Shown here in pieces: positions 6,114 to 29,946 of a DNA stretch of 64,000 nt; position 1 is the first letter of the stretch; every line of letters starts with the position of its first letter. The DNA comes from Patescibacteria group bacterium (lineage in GTDB: Bacteria; Patescibacteriota; Microgenomatia; UM-FILTER-40-11). The notes beneath the pieces were generated by a model, which saw only the letters and a list, made by a program, of their open reading frames with translations, was not told the DNA's origin and searched no databases. Made by a program: the position numbers and the translations under genes. Location: contig DATKVM010000009.1 of the NCBI GenBank assembly GCA_035530075.1, positions 1,718-65,717 on the forward strand. Direction: 5' to 3'.

Positions 6114-6383
6114 TTTTACTTGAGATTAGCAAGCATATCTGGTAGCAAACAATTGCATTTTACTGTAAGAATTACTATAAGTCAATAGATTTGCGTTTTG
6201 TCTTTTGGCATAGATTCCGATTATTCTGATTACTATATTCTTTTACAAAATCTGTAAGCACAAATTAAAACCGACCTACCTTCTTAAGACAAAAAGGACA
6301 AAAACATTCTTGTCAGCGCTTTACTTGTGGGCGATCTCGGATGAGGAAGCAAAACTAAAGTTAAATGAAATTTGGAATAATCT

Positions 6384-6641
6384 TTAAATTCTTCCGCAAC
6401 AAGAGGGTGTCGTTTTTTGGCCGCACAACCGATATAAAAAAATCTCAATACTTATATCTGCATGTTCATACGGAAGAAAACCTCCCTCTAGCGTTCTCGT
6501 TCTCCTAACAGCATGAATTAAATTAAATTCAGCTTCAGATTCAAATAAATGGATTAAATCGACTTTAATAACAGGCGAAGCGGAATGAATTACATCCTGC
6601 GATTCAACGGTCATAATAACCTCTTCATTGCATCCTGCCAA
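6384..6641 (-). CDS. Small hypothetical ORF overlapping the 3' end of the HAD-like gene (possible frameshift remnant)
   Basis: 85-aa ORF in a different frame, overlapping 6611-6641. No motifs. Confidence 0.2.
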   Translation of the reverse strand: MAGCNEEVIMTVESQDVIHSASPVIKVDLIHLFESEAEFNLIHAVRRTRTLEGGFLPYEHADISIEIFLYRLCGQKTTPSCCGRI

Positions 6642-7120: not shown

Positions 7121-7290
7121 AGACCATCATGTTCGAAAACTTTTTAACAATAAAAACGGTTTTTCTTTAAAACCTTCGGGGTTTCTTCGGCTGGCTTGGG
7201 GAGAGGAGCTTTAGGATAAATAATTTATCCAAGAAGCACTTTTTACGGCTATTATGAGGAGATTTCAAACCCTACTTATTTTAGTTTTAG

Positions 7291-7363
7291 TGGACCGTGC
7301 CGGATTCGAACCGGCGGTCTCCGCAATGCGAATGCGGCGCATTACCAACTGTGCTAACGGCCC
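7291..7363 (-). tRNA. tRNA-Ala (anticodon CGC)
   Basis: Reverse complement folds as a cloverleaf: GGGCCGU acceptor with a G3:U70 pair, anticodon loop UUCGCAU, T-arm GGTTCGAATCC. No CCA is encoded. Confidence 0.85.
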
Positions 7364-7429
7364 CCTTAATACTTAGTCCCAAATGAATTATACCAAAATG
7401 AAGGCTATTTATCTCTAAAGAAGCTTAAA

Positions 7430-7723
7430 TTAGGCTAAGGCGGCCAGCTCGGTTTGATGAATTTTTTCAAGTTTTTTGACAACAGCAAATTCTTTCTTGG
7501 TCGGCATATCAGCTTTCAAATCACGGATATCATTTTTAACATATGTCATTTCCGTCGCTAATTTCTCAAGATGATTCTCCACTTTACCCAATCGGCTCTC
7601 TACCCCATCAAATCTTTTATCTACCCCATCAAATCTTTTGTCCATATGAGGAACAATGATGTTTTCAAAAAAATCTATTAACTCTTTTGTTATTTTTGGC
7701 CTGTTTTGGTTTTTCGCCTTCAT
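7430..7723 (-). CDS. Hypothetical coiled-coil protein with an internal tandem DKRFDGV repeat
   Basis: 97-aa ORF. The DNA has a tandem duplication (ATCAAATCTTTTRTC twice) at about 7600-7640. Confidence 0.4.
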   Translation of the reverse strand: MKAKNQNRPKITKELIDFFENIIVPHMDKRFDGVDKRFDGVESRLGKVENHLEKLATEMTYVKNDIRDLKADMPTKKEFAVVKKLEKIHQTELAALA

Positions 7724-7763
7724 CTGCCGATGGTAAATTTATTTAACTTCTTTGTCAATCTCT

Positions 7764-15318: not shown

Positions 15319-16104
15319 GACACCTCGGGACTAGCGAAAATTTCGCCACCTCTTTTTCTTTTCTTCCAAAATCAAATGTTTAATGTCTCCCAGTCTCTTC
15401 TGATAGTCAGCTTGGTCTAAAACAAACTTTTTATAACCGCTTTGCGGTTGAAAACTTTGTTTATAATCATCCCTCGTTTTAAATTGAGTAAGAATAATTT
15501 CTTTTTGGCAAAAACCGTTTTGAATTTTTCCCAAATATTCGGGGAAGGATGAATAAATATAGTCTTCTAGTTCCCCTGCACTTTTGACTATATATGAAGT
15601 TAAAGGATTTAGATGAATGTAACGAGAAACATGGATTAATTGTTCATTGTCTTCAATTCTTACTGCCTTAAATCTTCCCTGGAAAAGTGGTCCGGTTCTT
15701 TCCTGCTTAGTATTGACAAAGCGGGCATAACTATTAGCAATGTTTCCCATAAATTTGGAGATTCCTTTTTCTGCCTTTTGCTTAAGAAGAAAATGTAGAT
15801 GATTAGGCATAAAACAATAACAAACAATGTCTATTAAAAAATTTATCTTCTTTTTTTGTTCTTCCATAATTCTACTTCTCTCTTCTTGCGATAAGGTTAA
15901 GAATCGAGAAAGTTTCATAGGTGGCTTTTGATTCTGATAGTAAATAATTGTGCTTAGAAGTCTTTGATAATCTCTCTGATCAAAAAAGGTAGGTTGGAAG
16001 GAAACGCCCCGATTAAAAACATGGTAAATTTCATCATTAATCAAAGGAATAATTCTTCCTGGCATAAATTTTATTCAATAATAGAAAGAAATTCCCGAGG
16101 TGTC
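15319..16104 (-). mobile_element. IS200/IS605-like RAYT unit with inverted repeats
   Basis: GACACCTCGGGACT (15319-15332) and the imperfect inverse ATTCCCGAGGTGTC (16091-16104; core TCCCGAGGTGTC at 16093-16104) bracket the transposase CDS. Additional REP-like hairpins: CCACTCC...GGAGTGG at 15286-15309, and a second CCCGAGGTGG copy at 16120-16130. Confidence 0.6.
15331..16065 (-). CDS. REP-associated tyrosine transposase (IS200/IS605 TnpA-like, HuH family)
   Basis: HuH motif NHLHFLL and catalytic Tyr context RYIHLNP. 244 aa. Confidence 0.7.
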   Translation of the reverse strand: MPGRIIPLINDEIYHVFNRGVSFQPTFFDQRDYQRLLSTIIYYQNQKPPMKLSRFLTLSQEERSRIMEEQKKKINFLIDIVCYCFMPNHLHFLLKQKAEKGISKFMGNIANSYARFVNTKQERTGPLFQGRFKAVRIEDNEQLIHVSRYIHLNPLTSYIVKSAGELEDYIYSSFPEYLGKIQNGFCQKEIILTQFKTRDDYKQSFQPQSGYKKFVLDQADYQKRLGDIKHLILEEKKKRWRNFR

Positions 16105-16142: not shown

Positions 16143-17042
16143 CTAGACAGCGGGTATTGGTTCGGTCCAATCTCCCATATCCCCTGCGGTATATCGGCCG
16201 TCATCCTCAGTAAGATAAAAATGATCATTAAGACTATAGACGGGCACAGCGGCAATCGCCGTGATTGACCGGAAACCAAAGTACTCCTTTGTTTCAGGCG
16301 AGGTCAATGATTCCATTCCTCTCTGGGTGGCGGCACTGACTGCGATAACCACTCTCACCTCTGAAAAAGGAATCTTCTCTTTGGCCAACCCCTCCCTGAT
16401 CATAAGCATGGTAGTAAAAGCACTAACATCCGTGGCAATGCAATCATCGCCAACTACAAAAGTTCGATAATTGGCAATCGAAGGATTTTCTTCTCCTACC
16501 CCTACCCCAACCAACAAGTTGCCATCCTTTGGAATTCGGCTTAAGTGGAAATCATAAATATCCTCATGGGGAAAGCCGTATTTTTGATACTCCTGAGCAA
16601 CGAAAATGCCCCCATTTTTAGGAGGCAAAAGCAGGGCCCTCTCTTTCCCAACTATTTCCCCAACTTCTTCTGCTAAAGCATGATAAACTTTGGCCAAACT
16701 TCGGCAGTATTTCTCTTTGTCTTCAGGTATTCGCGGGCTTCCGGTATTAGCCAGATCAGTTATCTGCCTCATTGCCATTCTTACCTTAGGAAAAGTAAAT
16801 CCCAAAAAACGCATATTTGGGCGGCAGAGACTATTAGCAATAATTCTCTCATCAAGGGGTACCGATACCCTATATCCATCCCTTGAATAACCAAAATCAA
16901 CTACCCAATCATAAGGCCCTTTTTCTTTTTCTCCATTTTCCCCAGCAACACAAAGACAATTTCCTCGCCGGAACAAATAGGCAGGTAAAAATCCATTCCG
17001 GTTTTCCCGATAAACCCTGGGGGCTAAGGCTTCTCCTGACAT
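16143..17042 (-). CDS. Hypothetical protein with a phosphoribosyltransferase-like motif
   Basis: FVVGDDCIATDVSAFT resembles the PRTase type I PRPP-binding loop. Otherwise unrecognised. Immediately downstream of the radical SAM gene. Confidence 0.4.
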   Translation of the reverse strand: MSGEALAPRVYRENRNGFLPAYLFRRGNCLCVAGENGEKEKGPYDWVVDFGYSRDGYRVSVPLDERIIANSLCRPNMRFLGFTFPKVRMAMRQITDLANTGSPRIPEDKEKYCRSLAKVYHALAEEVGEIVGKERALLLPPKNGGIFVAQEYQKYGFPHEDIYDFHLSRIPKDGNLLVGVGVGEENPSIANYRTFVVGDDCIATDVSAFTTMLMIREGLAKEKIPFSEVRVVIAVSAATQRGMESLTSPETKEYFGFRSITAIAAVPVYSLNDHFYLTEDDGRYTAGDMGDWTEPIPAV

Positions 17043-17065: not shown

Positions 17066-18127
17066 TTATATTAAGTTGTGCCAGAAATTGTTCTTTTCTC
17101 TTCCTCTACTAATACCAAATCCTCCAACCCTGTCAATAAAGCTCCAGCTGCAAGAACACCCTCGGCCACCCTGATCATTCTGCCAAGCTTTAAGCCACTG
17201 TGAATAATCTTTTTTTCCTCGAACCCAATCCATGACATTAAACTGATTAGCTAGTTCTCCCCGACGCCAAATGCAAAACGGGATCGTCCCATCAGAAGCC
17301 AAATGCAGAGTTAAAGGGAACGGGGCGGAAGAACATTTATACATCTGGCCTATCCCCAAAGTAGGTAGCAGTTGTAAAAATCTTGTTGAGGGAATCAAAA
17401 AATTGTTTTCTTGTTGCTTTATTTTAACCAATTCTCGGACTATCTTTCTTAGCTGTTGCTGGTCCTGCCCGTCTAAAGCTGTCGTCTGATGGTCGAAACA
17501 AAGAGTTTGTTCCGGACATAAGTTCAAGTAAATCTGTTGTTTTGCCAAAAAGAAGTAGGTTTTTAAGATGTCGGGGAGAGTCTTTTTGTTTATGATGCTG
17601 TTGGCACTCAAAATAAAATCCACTTTGGGAAAATCTTGGCGGAGTATCTGAAGGAAACGCAGTCCCAAAAGGCTTTTTCTTTCGCTCCCTTTCTCCCGAC
17701 CGACTAAATCGGACCAATCGGTTTTTTTAGATTTGTCGTCCAAGCGGTCAATGCTCACAACAAACTTATTGGCTCCCGCCCTAACCAAAGTTTGCCGCTG
17801 TTTTTTATCTCTTAAAACTGAGATCCCGCTGGTTGAGAGAACGACGTTGACCCCTGACAGCTTGTGACTCATGAAATCAATCAGTCTCTCTACTCCCTTT
17901 TTGGCCGTAGGCTCGCCGCCGATCAGAAAAAAGAGTTTAATTCCCAACCACCGGTTTAAAAATTCGACTGCTTGTTGCCACTGTTCAATCGACAACTCCC
18001 TAACAAGGAGCTTCTTTTTCTCCTTCTGCGGCATCTGTGTATAGGGGCAGTAATCACAGCCTTCCATACAGACTTCGCTGATAAAAAGTTGTGCTTGCCT
18101 CGGATAGTTGGTGAGATTACCTTTCAT
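17066..18127 (-). CDS. Radical SAM protein with a C-terminal Cys-rich (SPASM/twitch-like) region
   Basis: CMEGCDYC (Cx3Cx2C) at the N-terminus and GCSCSWSF near the C-terminus. AAGGAGG RBS 6 nt upstream of the ATG. Confidence 0.75.
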   Translation of the reverse strand: MKGNLTNYPRQAQLFISEVCMEGCDYCPYTQMPQKEKKKLLVRELSIEQWQQAVEFLNRWLGIKLFFLIGGEPTAKKGVERLIDFMSHKLSGVNVVLSTSGISVLRDKKQRQTLVRAGANKFVVSIDRLDDKSKKTDWSDLVGREKGSERKSLLGLRFLQILRQDFPKVDFILSANSIINKKTLPDILKTYFFLAKQQIYLNLCPEQTLCFDHQTTALDGQDQQQLRKIVRELVKIKQQENNFLIPSTRFLQLLPTLGIGQMYKCSSAPFPLTLHLASDGTIPFCIWRRGELANQFNVMDWVRGKKDYSQWLKAWQNDQGGRGCSCSWSFIDRVGGFGISRGREKNNFWHNLI

Positions 18128-18156
18128 TAAAGCCTCCTTTGGCTACCGGCTGAATG

Positions 18157-18192
18157 TCGTTTCAAAAAAGACCACCTCTTCGGCGGTCTTTA
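18157..18192 (-). terminator. Intrinsic terminator (hairpin with a CUUCGG-type loop plus U6), proximal copy
   Basis: Minus strand reads AAAGACCGCCGAAGAGGTGGTCTTTTTT. Ends about 30 nt upstream of the radical SAM start codon. Confidence 0.55.
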
Positions 18193-18211
18193 GGTTAATA
18201 AACTTTTTACA

Positions 18212-18247
18212 ATTTTTGGGTATTTTGATCATAAAAAAACCACCTCT
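18212..18247 (-). terminator. Intrinsic terminator, distal tandem copy
   Basis: Minus strand reads AAAACCGTCGAAGAGGTGGTTTTTTT, a near-duplicate of the proximal hairpin. Confidence 0.55.
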
Positions 18248-19228
18248 TCGACGGTTTTAATAAGGAGCAAAATCATCTGTTTGCTTCCCCTAAGGAGGAT
18301 GGTACGCCTGCCCAACCTACCATCCTCCTTACGAAAAGCAAAAACTTCTTAAATTACAATTGAAAAATGGATAACCATAATCAAAGAAAACCAAGGCGAT
18401 AAGGAGCCGAGAAAATTAGGAGGTCTAGAAAAACTAAATTGGGCCATTTTCACTGCTTTATTTCCCTCGAAAACAGTATTGACAATCTTTTTTACTGATG
18501 CTATGGTTTTTCTTAGGATTTAATACCTGTCCTTAAATCCTAAACCTTTTAAGGGCATTACTATTCGTAAGCTTCAAAGAAAACGCAAGACTTAGCGGTA
18601 GTAATGCTCTTTCTTTTATACGACAAATTCCTCTGGTCCCCAGCATCACTCTCTGTCTTAAATATCCTGTCAAAAGGAAGTAAGAATCGGGTAAGGAGTC
18701 TCCTTCAGTTTTTAAGGTGCCTCTCTCAAAACCCAATTCCTCGACCGCCGCTCAAACCGCTCGAGCCGTCATTTTCATTACCACCAACTCTCCCCCCAGA
18801 CGGGAAAGCTCTTGAAGTTGCCTTTTCGCCCACCGGTTTTGCCCAAGACTCTTAGAAACCAACTTCTGGAAAGGCGAAAGCTTCCTTTTCAACAGATTGC
18901 TCAGTCGTCTTTTACTCATATCTATCAGAGCAATATTATTGCCTCTCTTTGACTTTTCAATTCTGGTTATATCACACCCCTTTTGACTCGTCAAGCTTAT
19001 AGTAAACAAACTCCGCAAAACGCCTGCGCTTATAGTATTTACTCTCATATTCTTAGCCTCGTTTTCCCCCATGATAGAAACTTTTAAAGTGAATGTGGAT
19101 AACTTTGGAAAAGGGGTTGACAACATCAATTAAAAGTTCAAAGTGCAAAGTTAAAAGTTAGAAAGCGGAGCAAAAAAATGAAGTAAGGAGATAGAAAACT
19201 TTGAACTTTAAACTGTAATTTTGAATTT

Positions 19229-20608
19229 TTAACTTTGACCTTTTAACTCCCCAACAATTTTTACGGCTTCTCGAAGGCTCTTGATTGTTCCTGAAGACAA
19301 TATCTTGGTAAACCCTAACTTTTTGGCTTCTTTGATCCGCTTCTCTTCTCCGCTAACTCGTCTTATCTCGCCCAAAAGACCAACTTCACCAAAAACACAA
19401 GCTTTGACCGGTAAGGGGGTATTTTTAAAGCTAGAAACAATCGCCAGACAAATCCCCAAATCGGCCGCTGGTTCCGCAATTTTAAAACCGCCGCCGACCT
19501 TGACAAAAATATCCTGATTATAGAGAGGCAAGCCGAGAGTCTTCTGGAGCACAGCCGCCAGCAGCAAAACTCGGTTATAATCAACGCCGGAAACAACTCT
19601 TCGGGGAACCGCTAAGGCGCTTTGAGTGACGAGGGCCTGTATCTCCAAAAGCACCGGTCTAGTCCCCTCCATAGCGCAAACTACCACACTCCCAGGTTGG
19701 TTTTTGGTTTCTTCACCTGCTTCCAAAAACAGTTCGGAGGGATTGGCCACTTCCGTCATCCCCTTCTCTCCCATTCGGAAAACCCCCACCTCGTCAGTCG
19801 GACCAAAACGATTCTTAATCCCCCGAAGCAATCTCAGGTCGGCAAACCGCTCTCCTTCTAAAAAGAGAACTGCGTCAACCATATGTGAGAGTATCATTGG
19901 CCCGGCAATTTCTCCCTCTTTATTGACATGCCCAACCAAAATTGCGGTAATACTGTTCTTTTTGGCAAATTCGAGTAGCTTTTGAGAACACCCGCGCACT
20001 TGAGAAATTGAGCCCGGGCTACCGTCAAAATCCTCTGACCAAAGAGTTTGAATGGAATCAATGATCATAAATATACCCACGGCATCACGAGCGATTTTTC
20101 CCGCTTCTCCTTGGACGAGTAGTCCCTCGGCTACTGCGGCGGCTTCTTCAATAATTCTCTCCACGTTGGTCTCCGGCAAAAGAAGTAAATGACTATTTTC
20201 CGCTCCGGTCCTCTCGGCCCTAAGCTTTACTTGCTCCGGCGATTCCTCGCCACAGATATAAAGGCAAATGGATTCTTTCGGCAGGAATTTAACTAATTGG
20301 AGCAAGAGAGTGCTCTTGCCTACCCCCGGCTCACCCGCCAATAAAACAACTGACCCGGCAATAAAACCTCCTCCGAGCACTCGGTCAAATTCCCCTAGAC
20401 TAGTGGCAATCCGCTGGTTTTTAAATGCCTTTATCTCTGAAAGCTTTATCGGTTTAACCGCTTGTTTCGCGGTCGCTTTAAGCTTTGTTTTTTGGGCCTT
20501 GAATTCCTGCATTGTGTTCCACTGGCCGCAATTAGGACATTTGCCATACCAGCGGGGCGATTCATAACCGCATTGCGAACAAACAAACCAAATTGAAGTT
20601 TTTGCCAT
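19229..20608 (-). CDS. radA: DNA repair protein RadA (Sms)
   Basis: N-terminal zinc finger CSQCGYESPRWYGKCPNC, RecA-like Walker A GEPGVGKST, and a Lon-like C-terminal domain. Confidence 0.9.
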   Translation of the reverse strand: MAKTSIWFVCSQCGYESPRWYGKCPNCGQWNTMQEFKAQKTKLKATAKQAVKPIKLSEIKAFKNQRIATSLGEFDRVLGGGFIAGSVVLLAGEPGVGKSTLLLQLVKFLPKESICLYICGEESPEQVKLRAERTGAENSHLLLLPETNVERIIEEAAAVAEGLLVQGEAGKIARDAVGIFMIIDSIQTLWSEDFDGSPGSISQVRGCSQKLLEFAKKNSITAILVGHVNKEGEIAGPMILSHMVDAVLFLEGERFADLRLLRGIKNRFGPTDEVGVFRMGEKGMTEVANPSELFLEAGEETKNQPGSVVVCAMEGTRPVLLEIQALVTQSALAVPRRVVSGVDYNRVLLLAAVLQKTLGLPLYNQDIFVKVGGGFKIAEPAADLGICLAIVSSFKNTPLPVKACVFGEVGLLGEIRRVSGEEKRIKEAKKLGFTKILSSGTIKSLREAVKIVGELKGQS

Positions 20609-22584: not shown

Positions 22585-22726
22585 ATTTTGTGCTTGAGTC
22601 CCCCGGCCTTGACCTATTTTGGCTCGTAAGAGACAAATCAAGCTTTGCTTATTTGCACTCCACCGATAGGCAGATAGCTTTTTCAAGCCTATTTTGTGCT
22701 TGAGTCCCCCGGCCTTGACCTATTTT
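22585..22726. repeat. 36-bp direct repeat: the 3'-terminal segment of 5S rRNA duplicated about 70 bp downstream
   Basis: ATTTTGTGCTTGAGTCCCCCGGCCTTGACCTATTTT occurs at 22585-22620 and at 22691-22726. Confidence 0.7.
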
Positions 22727-22840
22727 CACAATCGCTTGCGCAATTACTATCGTCGGCGCTGAGGTGTTTGACGACTCTGTTCGGAATGGAGAGAGGTAGT
22801 GCCACCTCGCTTCAAAGACCGAAAGGCTCAAACACAAAAT
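22693..22840 (-). rRNA. rrf: 5S rRNA (ends approximate; about 25-30 nt longer than typical)
   Basis: Reverse complement contains CCATTCCGAACAGAGTCGTCAAACACCTCAGCGCCGACGATAGTAATTGCG (loop C / helix IV-V core). Terminal helix TTTGTGTTTGAGCC pairs with GGACTCAAGCACAAA. Confidence 0.6.
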
Positions 22841-22904
22841 ATTATTTTAATTTTGCACCCTGGAAAGTGAAGAGAAAGTTTGATATATACCACCCCGAAG
22901 GATG

Positions 22905-25968
<3,064 letters not shown>

Positions 25969-26195
25969 AATTTGTTGTTATCCTCCTAAATTCGCTCTTC
26001 GAGCCGCAGTAGAAATCTACTAAGGCGAGAAGTAAGAATAGGAGGACGACCTATGCATCAAATTTCTCTTCACTTTTCAAAGTACATTTCCCTACTTTCG
26101 TAAGGGGTGGACCAGGGCGGTACTGACCCGCCTACCTTCTCATTGCAAATGAGACATTCTACCGTTGAACTACTGGCCCTCAACTTTATCTAAGC

Positions 26196-26240
26196 TAAGA
26201 CCCTAATAAAAACAAAAACTGGCTCGGAAGCCAGTTGCTT
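26196..26240 (-). terminator. Intrinsic terminator after the metallophosphoesterase gene (CTGGCTTCCGAGCCAG plus TTTTTGTTTTT)
   Basis: Hairpin plus U-run read on the minus strand, about 170 nt downstream of the CDS stop and upstream of the 23S 5' end. Confidence 0.5.
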
Positions 26241-26406
26241 TAAGGCCCTGAGAAGCTATTTATCCCTGTCCACGACAAAACGGAACGGAAAGGTAATCGT
26301 TTAGTTTTTGGCTTCTCATGAATTAGCTTTACTGTCTCCCGAACTAGAGTCTACGAAGCATTATACTCAAAAAAGGCCTCGTCTGTCAAGATCGCCCCAG
26401 CCTGTT

Positions 26407-27237
26407 TTAATCGTTCAGAAAAACTTCTTTTTTGTCTAACTCTTTCCCTTTCCAAATGACTTCCAGATATTTCGGTGACTGGGGATTGCGGTTGCCCGCA
26501 ATGGCGCCAATTACTGTTGTCCGCAGCCCCTCCAGCTCATAACTAGCAAAGAAGTGCAAATGCCCCGCAAAAACTTCCCTTACTTTATTTTCCGTCAATA
26601 CCTTCACCCACTCTTTCACCTCCAGCACCACCGTTGGATTCTCCTCGCCCATAATATGCCAAGAGCGGGGGTGATTAAGAGGCATATGCATAAAAACTAA
26701 ACAGCTTATCTGCCAACATTCGGCTACTTCAGCCCGCAACCAATCACCTTGGTTCTGGCCGTCTTCACCCATAAGAGCATTTATCCCCAAATAACTGCCA
26801 TTATCCGCCAAGATGAATTTAAAGTCATTTTTTTTAAAAGATTGAAAATCCGGCCCAAAAACCTCCCAAAAGAGATTCGCTTTTGGGGGATTGCTCGACC
26901 AAAAGTCATGATTGCCGGGAATGGCGTAATATTTAAGCCCGCTTTCATCTAAAACTTTTTTCATCGCTAAAAGCTCCTCTTTTTTCCCCAAGGAAGTTAA
27001 ATCGCCAACAATAATGACGAAATCGTCATTATTGGTTTTGGCCTTTTCTAAGGCGACGGCAAAATTCTCCGCATCGGAATGGACATCTCCCATAACGGCA
27101 AACTTAAGCGGTTTTACTGTTGGGGCAGACGGGGAAGAGGGAAAAAAGAAGCGTTTTATTTCTGTTTGACGGAAAAGGCTAATCCAAACCAAGCCGCCAA
27201 TGACTGCCAGGAAAAGAAGGCGCCTAAAAAACCTCAT
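26407..27237 (-). CDS. Calcineurin-like metallophosphoesterase with an N-terminal signal/TM
   Basis: Motifs GDVH, GDL, GNHD and GHLH. Located inside the 16S-23S spacer. Confidence 0.75.
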   Translation of the reverse strand: MRFFRRLLFLAVIGGLVWISLFRQTEIKRFFFPSSPSAPTVKPLKFAVMGDVHSDAENFAVALEKAKTNNDDFVIIVGDLTSLGKKEELLAMKKVLDESGLKYYAIPGNHDFWSSNPPKANLFWEVFGPDFQSFKKNDFKFILADNGSYLGINALMGEDGQNQGDWLRAEVAECWQISCLVFMHMPLNHPRSWHIMGEENPTVVLEVKEWVKVLTENKVREVFAGHLHFFASYELEGLRTTVIGAIAGNRNPQSPKYLEVIWKGKELDKKEVFLND

Positions 27238-27309
27238 GAAGTTATTTTAACAAAAAATACCAGAGCCGGTTGAATGAGGCTAATATATATGTTAAAATTT
27301 CATATTATT

Positions 27310-27383
27310 GGACGCATAGCTCAGTTGGTTAGAGCGCGTCTCTGATAAAGACGAGGTCCTTGGTTCGACTCCAAGTGCGTCCA
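27310..27383 (+). tRNA. tRNA-Ile (anticodon GAU)
   Basis: Cloverleaf: GGACGCA acceptor, D-arm TAGCTCAGTTGGTTAGAGC, anticodon loop CUGAUAA, T-arm GGTTCGACTCC. Plus strand, opposite to the rRNAs. No CCA is encoded. Confidence 0.85.
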
Positions 27384-27384
27384 C

Positions 27385-27948
27385 TTATTTTGGTTCTTCT
27401 CTTTTATATCTAGCTTCAATACTGCGTGTAAGTTTCAACTGTTCCTCGTCAGTCATTAAACTTAACCCTAATTCTTTCGCCACTTCCCGAATTTTTTCCT
27501 CCGCTTCACTCTTTTCTTCCGAATTGTTAATCACCACCTCCAGCTCTGCGTGATATCCCCAATCTTCACTATGCTTAACCGCAATTTCCACCCCTTTATA
27601 CAAAAAATTGTGTCTTTTTTGGCCGTTGTAAATCATTTGTCCTGGTAGGTGCAAGGCCAGAAATAATTGAGCTAGCCGGTCAACTTCATCAATATGTAAA
27701 GGAATCTCCATTTCTTCCCAATCAAGTTTTTGACCAATTCGACCCAGTTTTAAAACAATCTTGCCCGTTCCTTTGGAAATATTTTTAACCACCTTAAGCA
27801 GCTTGTCTTTGAAGATAAAAAAGTAGGTGTCTTTGTCATCCTCACCTAAATCTTCGGCATTTTTACTTAAAAAAGCCATCAATTCTTGGTGTTTTTCCCC
27901 ATTAAAAAGGGAACGAAATTCAATTTCTATGTTTTTATGCATGGACAT
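27385..27948 (-). CDS. CYTH-domain protein (CyaB/thiamine-triphosphatase-like)
   Basis: N-terminal EIEFRSLF (the EXEXK-type CYTH signature), with acidic/basic residue spacing typical of triphosphate tunnel enzymes. Sits in the 16S-23S spacer and abuts the tRNA-Ile. Confidence 0.55.
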   Translation of the reverse strand: MSMHKNIEIEFRSLFNGEKHQELMAFLSKNAEDLGEDDKDTYFFIFKDKLLKVVKNISKGTGKIVLKLGRIGQKLDWEEMEIPLHIDEVDRLAQLFLALHLPGQMIYNGQKRHNFLYKGVEIAVKHSEDWGYHAELEVVINNSEEKSEAEEKIREVAKELGLSLMTDEEQLKLTRSIEARYKREEPK

Positions 27949-28154
27949 AGTATACCTCCAATAGCTCTAATTGCCCAAATTCGGCCAATTATTCCACCAA
28001 AAAGCCCCGGATCTCTCCGGGGCCTCGACCTTGACCTTCAAAAAGTGGTAGGAAGCTCACCGAATATGACTTTTTTCCGGCAATAGCTTTTTTATGTCAG
28101 CTTAAGACAGCTTTGTTTAGTCCGACTTACGTCGGACAGCGTTTTTTCTCCTTA

Positions 28155-29655
<1,501 letters not shown>

Positions 29656-29946
29656 AAAAAAAATTGATTTTACTCAATTTAAAAAGTTCCTACCACTTTT
29701 TGAATGTCAAAGTACCGTAGCACTTTGATCCTCCAGCAAACGCTCCTTGAGTCCTCCGAATCGGAGGACAAAAGGTAAGTTGCAGAGGGTCAAGTACCTT
29801 GAAAGATATCCTCCTTACCTTAGCACTCGGCTTTTCAGAACTATTTGAGTGAAACTCAATCAAGCTCTGCTTATTCGTTCACGCCTCGGGCTGCGGTTAT
29901 CGGCGGATGATGTGCTACTAGATTTTGAAAAAACTAGATAAATATC

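Follow-up and report, generated by a model that had tools for sequence, protein, structure and literature searches.

A conserved small-protein gene and a candidate convergent small RNA between radA and rho in a lineage of Patescibacteria

What occupies an interval of 1.1 kb that seems to hold no gene, ends in two tandem terminators and leads into the gene of a radical S-adenosylmethionine (SAM) enzyme? The question is raised by a locus in a 64-kb stretch of DNA from Patescibacteria, the candidate phyla radiation (CPR); this whole stretch is the window throughout, and the gene direction of the locus is its minus strand. The boundaries of the interval, radA (19229-20608, minus strand) and the radical SAM gene (17066-18127, minus strand), were recognized in an earlier note on this DNA and are confirmed by the listing of open reading frames (ORFs). 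The 1,101 nt between them are also, as that note had it, low in coding content: no other part of the window extends as far without a credible ORF of 100 aa or more. We consider it probable that this stretch is a composite of small separate functional units, situated in the conserved radA-to-rho interval of one lineage of Patescibacteria. Read in gene direction these are: a hairpin at the 3' end of radA; a motif we term Box A; a promoter with a 55-aa ORF; a candidate small RNA (sRNA) convergent with that ORF; the stump of a gene; a hairpin termed H3; the terminators T1 and T2; and a ribosome-binding site (RBS). The radical SAM gene belongs to the variable cargo of the radA-to-rho interval.

The comparison set consists of 10-11 distinct lineages (designated by L-codes), which were gathered via homologues of the small protein and by a DNA-pattern scan of metagenomes with the sRNA, the latter contributing four new loci. 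An exact-pattern scan of GTDB genomes with the sRNA core gave zero matches, as one base differs in the only representative genome carrying the module, which was found via the small protein. Exact copies of the locus are present in five independent assemblies; samples with this genome are ENA ERZ27256808 and ERZ27256810, JGI 3300031578 and SRR8554504. The order common to all lineages is S1, (x), radA, Box A, small ORF, conserved block, variable genes and rho. The upstream flank, radA, is syntenic in all related loci, and its identity to the counterparts in L006, L014, L025, L027 and L028 is 64-71% at the amino acid level and 67-74% at the DNA level. The locus L006, with the order S1, small gene, radA, X, radical SAM gene, small gene and rho, has a radical SAM protein 66% identical to that of the window and an X region of 2.9 kb as against 1.1 kb. 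When compared with blastn, the two share three blocks: positions 105-799 of the region (73%), the big hairpin (94%) and the terminator zone (79%). In L006 a 248-aa gene separates the first block from the second, and a gene for a paralogue of the asparaginyl-tRNA synthetase (AsnRS) core comes after the terminators and before the radical SAM gene. The locus L028 (CAYVNK010000018.1) carries the GenBank title 'uncultured Gammaproteobacteria bacterium'; since the locus shows the gene order of the Patescibacteria window (S1, radA, small ORF, sRNA, H3, rho), the gammaproteobacterial label is probably wrong.

A small-protein gene and the candidate sRNA facing it

The earlier note saw no convincing coding sequence in the interval; there is one. 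A 55-aa ORF, MSKRRLSNLLKRK...QLQELSRLGGELVVMKMTARAV (18752-18919, minus strand), lies behind the promoter and is conserved and coding. It is intact, at 55-71 aa, in eleven lineages, always directly after radA, and its invariant positions are M1-S-K-R, N8, R12 and an SxxGGxLxxM block. Averaged over pairs of sequences, the N-terminal block differs by 0.235/0.086/0.355 and the C-terminal block by 0.294/0.089/0.57 at codon positions 1/2/3, a pattern that points to purifying selection on the protein; amino-acid conservation, the bias at third positions and the preservation of the frame across the lineages together mark the ORF as coding. The NCBI annotation has it as a hypothetical protein, with homologues at 36-51% identity. 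A profile search of 1.84 billion representative proteins recovered 22 members, which indicates a small, lineage-specific family. The protein is basic, hydrophilic and amphipathic, without a hydrophobic stretch or membrane segment, and has no match in Pfam, NCBIfam or PADLOC.

The sigma70-like promoter that had been noticed in the region stands: TTGACG (18994-18989), a 17-nt spacer and TATAAC (18971-18966) on the minus strand. The full element, TTGACG-17-TGaTATAAC (18966-18994), is conserved in seven lineages with the consensus TTGACR-17/18-TGnTA(T/A)A(A/T)(C/T), and persists despite a variable spacer in L006, L013, L014, L020, L027 and L028, the relatives of the window. A consensus scanner missed it on account of the C that is its last base. 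A leaderless mRNA is implied in five lineages, where the -10 hexamer is followed by the ATG after 6-7 nt; in the window and in L006 the small ORF has a short leader. A second promoter-like site, TTGAAA-16-TAATAT (18960-18933, minus strand), is specific to the window and lies in a 44-nt insertion.

Just downstream of the stop codon of the small ORF is the best-conserved DNA of the interval. Alignment, a consensus fold and a covariance model define here a candidate novel sRNA of ~105-110 nt (18509-18618, plus strand), which is convergent with the small ORF. It is preceded by a promoter with an extended -10 element, TTGACA-17-TGcTATGGT (18479-18507, plus strand; 10/12 matches with TG in the promoter scan). 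This promoter is found in 10/10 lineages as a -35 TTGACA, a variable spacer of exactly 17 nt ending in TGn, and a -10 TA(T/C)NNT, so that in all ten the candidate has its own promoter and its own intrinsic terminator at a conserved position. Hairpin 1 begins 4-6 nt after the promoter and is formed by AGGAUUUAA, a loop with the sequence CCUGUCC, and UUAAAUCCU. After a variable linker follows hairpin 2, formed by GGGCAUUACUAUUCGUAAGCUUC, a variable loop and AAGACUUAGCGGUAGUAAUGCUC, and then a U-rich tail; this terminal hairpin and its tail abut the 3' end of the small ORF.

Four signals indicate that the RNA is read from the plus strand. Among the 12 nt that follow hairpin 2, U accounts for 7-11 on the plus strand versus 1-6 on the minus strand; the consensus fold has four G.U pairs on the plus strand which would be A.C mismatches on the minus strand; in one lineage a U-A pair has become U.G; and the plus strand folds better, with a minimum free energy of -31.8 kcal/mol (z -4.9) versus -26.9 (z -2.85). 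With the covariance model each locus yields exactly one copy, scoring 100-124 bits. The identity of this block across lineages is 82-97%, compared with 67-74% for radA DNA, and in hairpin 2 the 46 positions in pairs or internal loops are 100% identical save for one C-to-A change beside the loop in L028. As this invariance extends to the internal loops, it implies a constraint on the sequence and not merely on a terminator stem; a protein partner, or a use on both strands, would be the obvious explanations.

The candidate sRNA is previously undescribed and absent from Rfam, and the small-protein family is likewise without annotation. A scan of the whole window with Rfam at the gathering threshold returned rRNAs and tRNAs only, and one of 18050-19300 on both strands at E<=10 gave only sub-threshold noise of hairpin or terminator shape, with nothing at 18509-18618. 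The matches to Phe/Trp leaders (E 0.3-3), MicA and a miRNA among this noise are look-alikes of terminators and hairpins, far under the gathering scores, and were rejected. These scans bear out the earlier impression that the region lacks signatures of RNase P, tmRNA and SRP RNA; a dedicated tRNA/tmRNA scan also found none in the region. A literature search by topic and by the sequence of the sRNA returned nothing relevant.

Hairpin H3, the gene stump and the tandem terminators

The hairpin H3 (18280-18342, minus strand) was found by an inverted-repeat search and by alignment in nine lineages, and is characterized by 25-nt arms, a GGAGGA/UCCUCC core and an invariant loop, GGUUGGGCAGGCG. It accounts for a perfect 13-bp stem that had been placed at 18274-18312: the stem exists, and its core is at 18292-18330. 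The 5' arm carries GGAGGA and the 3' arm UCCUCC, and the loop is an invariant 13-mer, (G/U)GUUGGGCAGGC(G/C). In nine lineages H3 comes after a surface-protein gene or its stump; L025, L027 and L028 have no gene between the sRNA and H3. Across the alignment 87.4% of the H3 cells are paired versus 77.5% in shuffles (0/500 reach the observed value), with slid controls at 45-60%, and 11 pairs are changed on both sides, that is, in a compensatory manner. Repeated changes from G-C to G.U indicate that it is the gene (minus) strand that carries this RNA. In L013 (the sortase gene) and L019 (an ORF ended by the contig edge) the loop offers a UUG in frame with the next ORF; in L025, L027 and L028 the UUG frame closes after 8-9 codons. 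H3 is thus conserved for its own sake. The possibility that H3 or the terminators belong to a dispersed repeat of the repetitive extragenic palindromic (REP) type was rejected, as each occurs at this locus only in the 64 kb.

The loops of the two RNAs face each other in sequence: GGGCAGG of H3 and CCUGUCC of the sRNA, both invariant, could form seven pairs, one of them G.U, and a duplex scan of the downstream minus-strand RNA predicts the H3 loop as the best site for the 5' part of the sRNA. We regard this predicted loop pairing as a lead, not a result.

Upstream of H3 lies the tiny hydrophobic ORF to which the earlier note drew attention as a possible peptide precursor. The ORF exists, at 18349-18453/18444 and not at 18330-18425. 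In L006 and L023 a gene starting ~30-40 nt past the sRNA promoter encodes a protein (248 aa in L006, 314 aa in L023) that begins with a signal anchor, continues with a Cys-rich domain and a Pro/Thr-rich linker, and carries LPKTG and a membrane segment at its C-terminus. The ORF of the window, MKMAQFSFSRPPNFLGSL..., aligns with the first codons of these genes, shares with them the motif F..P(R/K)FLG and stops after 34 codons; L022 has a similar stump of 25-30 codons. Thus, by ORF listing, DNA alignment and motif, 18349-18453 (minus strand) reads as the truncated signal anchor of an LPxTG surface protein, the remnant of a deleted gene that is intact in L006 and L023. Larger Pro/Thr-rich proteins are encoded in the same place in L013, L014 and L019, with a sortase gene next in L013. 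The annotation of L013 1742-2191 has antisense 'VGVGV' ORFs, placed by gene callers within an evident Pro/Thr-rich surface-protein gene. A tblastn search of the window with the cargo of relatives (the AsnRS-core paralogue, the sortase and an 89-aa protein) found no pseudogene remains, only matches caused by H3 and the terminators.

The tandem terminators are real and near-identical, a pattern search giving two matches versus 0.01 expected. T1 (AAAACCGUC-GAAGA-GGUGGUUUUUUU; 18233-18258, minus strand), which had been placed at 18212-18247, is conserved in L006 and L022; T2 (GACCGCC-GAAGA-GGUGGUC and U6; 18164-18190, minus strand) is conserved in L006. The CUUCGG loops attributed to them belong to the complementary strand, the transcribed minus strand reading GAAGA. 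In general the features described earlier proved mostly real, with several of the coordinates about 18 nt off. The changes seen in the terminators of L006 keep their pairs as G.U on the gene strand, and the segment from H3 through T1 to T2 folds as three hairpins (z -5.6). The AAGGAGG RBS (18133-18139) does stand close behind the distal terminator, 24 nt after the T2 U-tract. The same RBS context, CAAAGGAGGCU, leads in L006 into the gene of the AsnRS-core paralogue that precedes the radical SAM gene.

How, then, is the radical SAM gene expressed? No sigma-70-like site was found in a scan of the minus strand from 18933 to 18128, in keeping with the proposal that no separate promoter lies between the terminators and the gene. 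In L006, L022 and L023 a promoter follows H3 (TTGACA-17/18-TAAAGT, TAGTGT or TATTTT). In the window a 78-nt deletion took out this promoter together with the first hairpin, and the radical SAM operon would hence be reachable by read-through alone. Expression by read-through of the terminators is plausible, and the transcripts would then start at the promoters of the small ORF.

In the relatives the layout recurs: promoter, two or three terminator hairpins, RBS and gene (L006 4690-4905; L022 590-735; L023 1550-1705). The terminators of L023 are unrelated in sequence, and the gene behind the leader differs: in L006 it encodes the AsnRS-core paralogue and the radical SAM gene comes next, L022 has a gene for an 81-aa protein there, and L023 has yet another gene. 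This recurrence suggests a regulated leader of the attenuator type, and the foremost alternative is that the tandem terminators constitute an attenuator, or a leader of conditional read-through, for whatever cargo gene follows. Its control may lie with the sRNA, with another factor or with an alternative pairing of H3: the 3' arm of a terminator hairpin, GAGGUGGU, could pair with the 3' arm of H3, ACCAUCCUC. Weighed against this are the lack of an identified conserved antiterminator structure, the lack of any match to a leader or riboswitch in Rfam, and the deletion of the leader promoter in the window itself. We hold such a leader to be possible, if on the unlikely side.

Variable cargo and the flanks of the interval

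Depending on the lineage, the cargo between radA and rho comprises surface proteins, a sortase, a toxin-antitoxin pair, or the set of radical SAM enzyme, phosphoribosyltransferase (PRTase)-fold protein and aminoacyl-tRNA synthetase (aaRS) paralogue; in several relatives it lies behind a promoter and tandem terminators. The product of the radical SAM gene of the window is a member of that superfamily (PF04055, 43.8 bits versus a cut-off of 29.5), with the motif CMEGCDYC (CX3CX2C) near the N-terminus. Its best match in the PDB is MoaA (E = 2.8e-5), and its NCBIfam matches (MoaA, PqqE, maturases, viperin) are all far under their cut-offs; PADLOC gives only a generic weak match of pVip level. An identical protein is on record from 'Patescibacteria group bacterium'. 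The 21 homologues of the enzyme have varied neighbourhoods, such as AbiEii and a cytidylyltransferase in L009. In L010 the gene is followed by a 301-aa homologue (30% identical) of the next gene product in the window, and tRNA-guanine transglycosylase (TGT) is also among its neighbours.

That next product, the radical SAM partner, is a 299-aa protein (16143-17042, minus strand) without a match in Pfam (including Pribosyltran) or NCBIfam. Foldseek searches with its AlphaFold2 model have as top matches uracil, xanthine and orotate phosphoribosyltransferases (E from 2.6e-4, probability 1.0), with TM-scores of 0.4-0.57 at a model pLDDT (predicted local distance difference test) of 64.5, and the motif VVGDDCIATDVS is present in the sequence. 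The label 'PRTase-like' given to this neighbour thereby gains support, within the limits of a moderate model. A homologue of the protein also occurs where no radical SAM gene is present. The edge of the cargo is marked by a gene for an IS200-like or REP-associated tyrosine transposase-like (RAYT-like) protein (15331-16065, minus strand; Pfam Y1_Tnp 8e-11; NCBIfam REP_Tyr_transpos 1e-14, below the cut-off).

The AsnRS-core paralogue of L006 (4905-5999) is a stand-alone catalytic core of 364 aa without the anticodon-binding domain (asnS 2.6e-47, below the cut-off). The radical SAM gene starts one base after the end of the paralogue gene, a closeness that suggests a pathway common to both in L006. 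We considered and rejected an analogy of this aaRS-paralogue and radical SAM pair with EpmA/EpmB: the paralogue is AsnRS-like, and the best 25 of 31 NCBIfam matches of the enzyme comprise MoaA/PqqE-type models and no aminomutase model. The radical SAM enzyme and the PRTase-fold protein most likely act on a substrate of the nucleobase or nucleotide type and not on a peptide.

At the opposite end of the interval, Box A (TTGTCAACCCC-N10-TTATCCACA; 19094-19123, minus strand) lies ~160 nt upstream of the small ORF and is conserved in seven lineages. Its pattern has one match in the window versus 0.01 expected. It contains a perfect DnaA-box 9-mer, TTATCCACA, which occurs in the 64 kb at Box A only; a part in a replication origin was dismissed, there being a single perfect DnaA box and no cluster. 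The 125-aa ORF at 18752-19129 is the sole ORF of at least 100 aa in the interval, but it was rejected as a gene: its N-terminal part is merely translated Box A and promoter, it is not kept in relatives, and in L006 a stop codon closes it. Other long stretches of the window without an ORF of at least 100 aa are 7121-7763 (643 nt, holding a tRNA-Ala(CGC)) and 6114-6610 (497 nt).

The gene radA itself (Pfam Zn_ribbon_LapB, AAA_25, KaiC-type ATPase, ChlI, Lon_C) ends within an AT-rich long inverted repeat that spans its stop codon (19127-19248; repeats I1 and I3, with arms of 18-30 nt that are 80-89% complementary). The repeat probably forms a hairpin at the 3' end of the radA transcript. Conservation does not extend to its sequence; relatives have in the same place hairpins that are built of repeats of other sequence. 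Such hairpins, composed of short tandem repeats and the complements of these, are found behind radA or the small ORF in L014 (4397-4470, 4847-4970) and L020 (634-760); the repeat types differ (CAAAG/CTTTG-like in the window, ACGCAAT in L014, CGAGATA in L020) within one and the same architecture.

Further afield in the window, the rRNA operon (22707-29661, minus strand) has a 2.2-kb 16S-23S spacer with a tRNA-Ala(UGC) on the same strand (26106-26179) and a tRNA-Ile(GAU) on the opposite strand (27310-27384), and ~121 nt are inserted in its 23S gene near model position 165. In L027 an ORF resembling a LAGLIDADG-type homing endonuclease, with the motif LAYIAGFLDGDG, lies close to the contig end (5627-6178, minus strand).

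Alternative readings and known systems

The composite of a small-protein gene, a convergent sRNA and a separate hairpin has several points to its disadvantage. Covarying pairs in the sRNA number 0/28, since invariant helices leave no compensatory changes to be seen, and the support for its structure is limited to the folding energy, the G.U asymmetry and the one change from U-A to U.G. That the sRNA is transcribed and the small ORF translated is inferred from sequence alone, and the structure model of the small protein, a single helix of low confidence (pTM 0.30), offers no functional clue. The case for the gene stump rests on DNA alignment, position and motif, its match at the protein level being weak (tblastn E = 0.17). 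The complementarity of the sRNA to H3 is just 7 nt long, with a rough chance estimate of 0.01-0.02, and covariation cannot apply to it; and the model of the 299-aa protein is of moderate quality (pLDDT 64.5, pTM 0.70), built on a 3-sequence alignment.

A further challenge is that the ~110-nt block might be no plus-strand sRNA at all: it could be a protein-binding site in double-stranded DNA or a cis element of the minus strand, the latter serving the small-ORF mRNA as a 3' terminator or stabilizing structure and the surface-protein gene downstream as a 5' leader or operator. The block always lies between the stop codon of the small ORF and the start of the next gene; hairpin 2 comes right after the stop codon in L013, L019, L025 and L027; invariance without covariation suits a protein-binding site; and the loop of hairpin 1 on the minus strand, GGACAGG, resembles the H3 loop GGGCAGG. 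What tells against it is strand polarity: TTGACA-17-TGnTAnnnT is kept in 10/10 lineages around a variable spacer and makes sense on the plus strand only, the four G.U pairs turn into A.C mismatches on the minus strand, and both the better fold and the U-tail are found on the plus strand. We therefore judge the cis element unlikely.

It is also conceivable that the small protein, the invariant sRNA and H3 make up a new switch specific to the lineage. The sRNA, possibly as a ribonucleoprotein with the 55-aa protein, would kiss H3 and so gate translation or read-through; H3 would sequester the Shine-Dalgarno (SD)-like GGAGGA, its 3' arm could alternatively pair with arms of the terminators, and docking would gate the sortase, surface-protein or cargo genes of a genomic hot-spot. 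We give this elaborate arrangement a low probability.

A type I toxin-antitoxin-like pair, in which the small-ORF transcript and the sRNA overlap by their 3' ends at hairpin 2, would account for their convergence upon a common 3' hairpin and for their strict co-occurrence in all lineages. However, the protein, basic and hydrophilic and devoid of a membrane segment, does not have the hydrophobic or membrane character of such a toxin; there is no match in PADLOC; and an antisense pair needs no 100% invariance of sequence across lineages. Moreover, the pair is in single copy at one fixed chromosomal position between radA and rho, which looks like vertical inheritance and not mobility. A toxin-antitoxin role is accordingly improbable.

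The reading of the locus as one for a ribosomally synthesized and post-translationally modified peptide (RiPP) was put forward in the earlier note: the mini-ORF would be the precursor, the terminators would set the ratio of precursor to maturase, and a radical SAM/SPASM enzyme would modify the peptide. The order of short ORF, terminators and radical SAM gene is present, the C-terminus of the enzyme has a CX14GX4C, and there is weak, sub-threshold similarity to PqqE and peptide maturases. The defining SPASM pattern, however, has seven cysteines (CX9-15GX4C ... CX2CX5CX3C ... C; Pfam PF13186). The enzyme has CX14GX4C ... CXC (a CSC pair), an arrangement that is twitch-like and not a full SPASM, and Pfam at E<=0.1 returns PF04055 alone, which leaves the SPASM label unsupported. 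Pfam and NCBIfam searches of the enzyme and its neighbours yield no SPASM, PqqD or RiPP recognition element (RRE), protease or transporter match, and its partner has a predicted PRTase fold. The mini-ORF, being the truncated signal anchor of the LPKTG protein that is intact in L006 and L023, has no Cys/Gly-rich core; other genes separate the surface-protein ORF from the radical SAM gene in L006; L022 has the stump and no radical SAM gene; and a search for short ORFs beside radical SAM homologues found no conserved one upstream in L009 or L010. By these sequence comparisons the RiPP reading is largely refuted, and we accord it very little credence. As the supposed precursor is a gene stump and the locus is not of the RiPP type, genome-mining effort should not go there.

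Equally little can be said for a single structured non-coding RNA of ~0.8 kb on the minus strand: the region does fold with many helices (z -5.6 for the segment from H3 to T2) and holds no long ORF, but its conservation is limited to discrete blocks, between which relatives hold whole genes of 248-807 aa, one block is protein-coding by its codon-position pattern, another has its promoter, G.U and terminator signals on the opposite strand, and Rfam has no matching family, so that what remains of the proposal is the ~110-nt opposite-strand sRNA and the covarying hairpin.

Returning to the composite, we propose that the small protein and the sRNA form a lineage-specific module which was probably inherited vertically, and that the sRNA provides antisense or kissing-loop control of downstream transcripts, possibly together with the small protein. 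Its targets would be minus-strand transcripts running from the small ORF into the surface-protein, sortase or cargo genes: the loop CCUGUCC is by position a perfect complement to the antisense transcript, and may in addition form its seven pairs with the H3 loop. The terminators would end or attenuate this minus-strand transcription. We know of almost no regulatory RNAs that have been characterized in CPR/Patescibacteria. The module offers a testable case specific to one CPR lineage: a candidate sRNA more conserved than radA and with clear promoter and terminator signals, always paired with the often leaderless gene of a tiny protein and with a covarying hairpin nearby. It establishes no new category; specialists in bacterial sRNAs and in the biology of the CPR should find it moderately interesting.

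Comparison with known systems clarifies what is shared and what is not. In radical SAM/SPASM RiPP clusters (PqqA/PqqE, sactipeptides, ranthipeptides), as in the window, a radical SAM enzyme with extra C-terminal cysteines has a short ORF and terminators upstream. They differ in that the window has no SPASM or RRE match but CX14GX4C and CXC only, that its short ORF is a remnant and is unlinked to the enzyme in other genomes, and that the partner has a predicted PRTase fold, relatives pairing the enzyme with the AsnRS-core paralogue, a cytidylyltransferase or TGT. The enzyme is closest, by PDB and NCBIfam, to MoaA and the twitch enzymes over its first ~130 residues, and shares with them a partial Cys motif for an auxiliary cluster; its score is, however, 36 bits versus a cut-off of 284, and the context is not one of molybdopterin synthesis. 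Attenuation leaders (T-box, trp/phe, PyrR) likewise have a promoter, terminator hairpin(s) and an RBS, and the first gene in L006 is an aaRS paralogue. Here, by contrast, there are two or three tandem terminators, no antiterminator was identified, the promoter is deleted in the window, and no covariance model of a T-box or leader matches above noise.

The pairs txpA/RatA and bsrG/SR4 of Bacillus subtilis are type I toxin-antitoxin systems with convergent genes that overlap at their 3' ends. In the window, too, a small ORF is convergent with a candidate sRNA that has a promoter of its own, and the two share a terminator hairpin; the protein, however, is not hydrophobic, the position in the core genome is fixed and the candidate sRNA is invariant in sequence. 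CopA/CopT, Sok/hok and RNAI/RNAII are antisense regulators that act through kissing loops. In contrast to a true antisense pair, the putative target in our case lies 0.26-1.7 kb away and would be reached in trans, and the interaction is a predicted one without covariation. The likeness to these regulators lies in the conserved 7-nt loop CCUGUCC, which in a stable hairpin faces the complementary and invariant GGGCAGG, and in a target hairpin that holds an SD-like GGAGGA.

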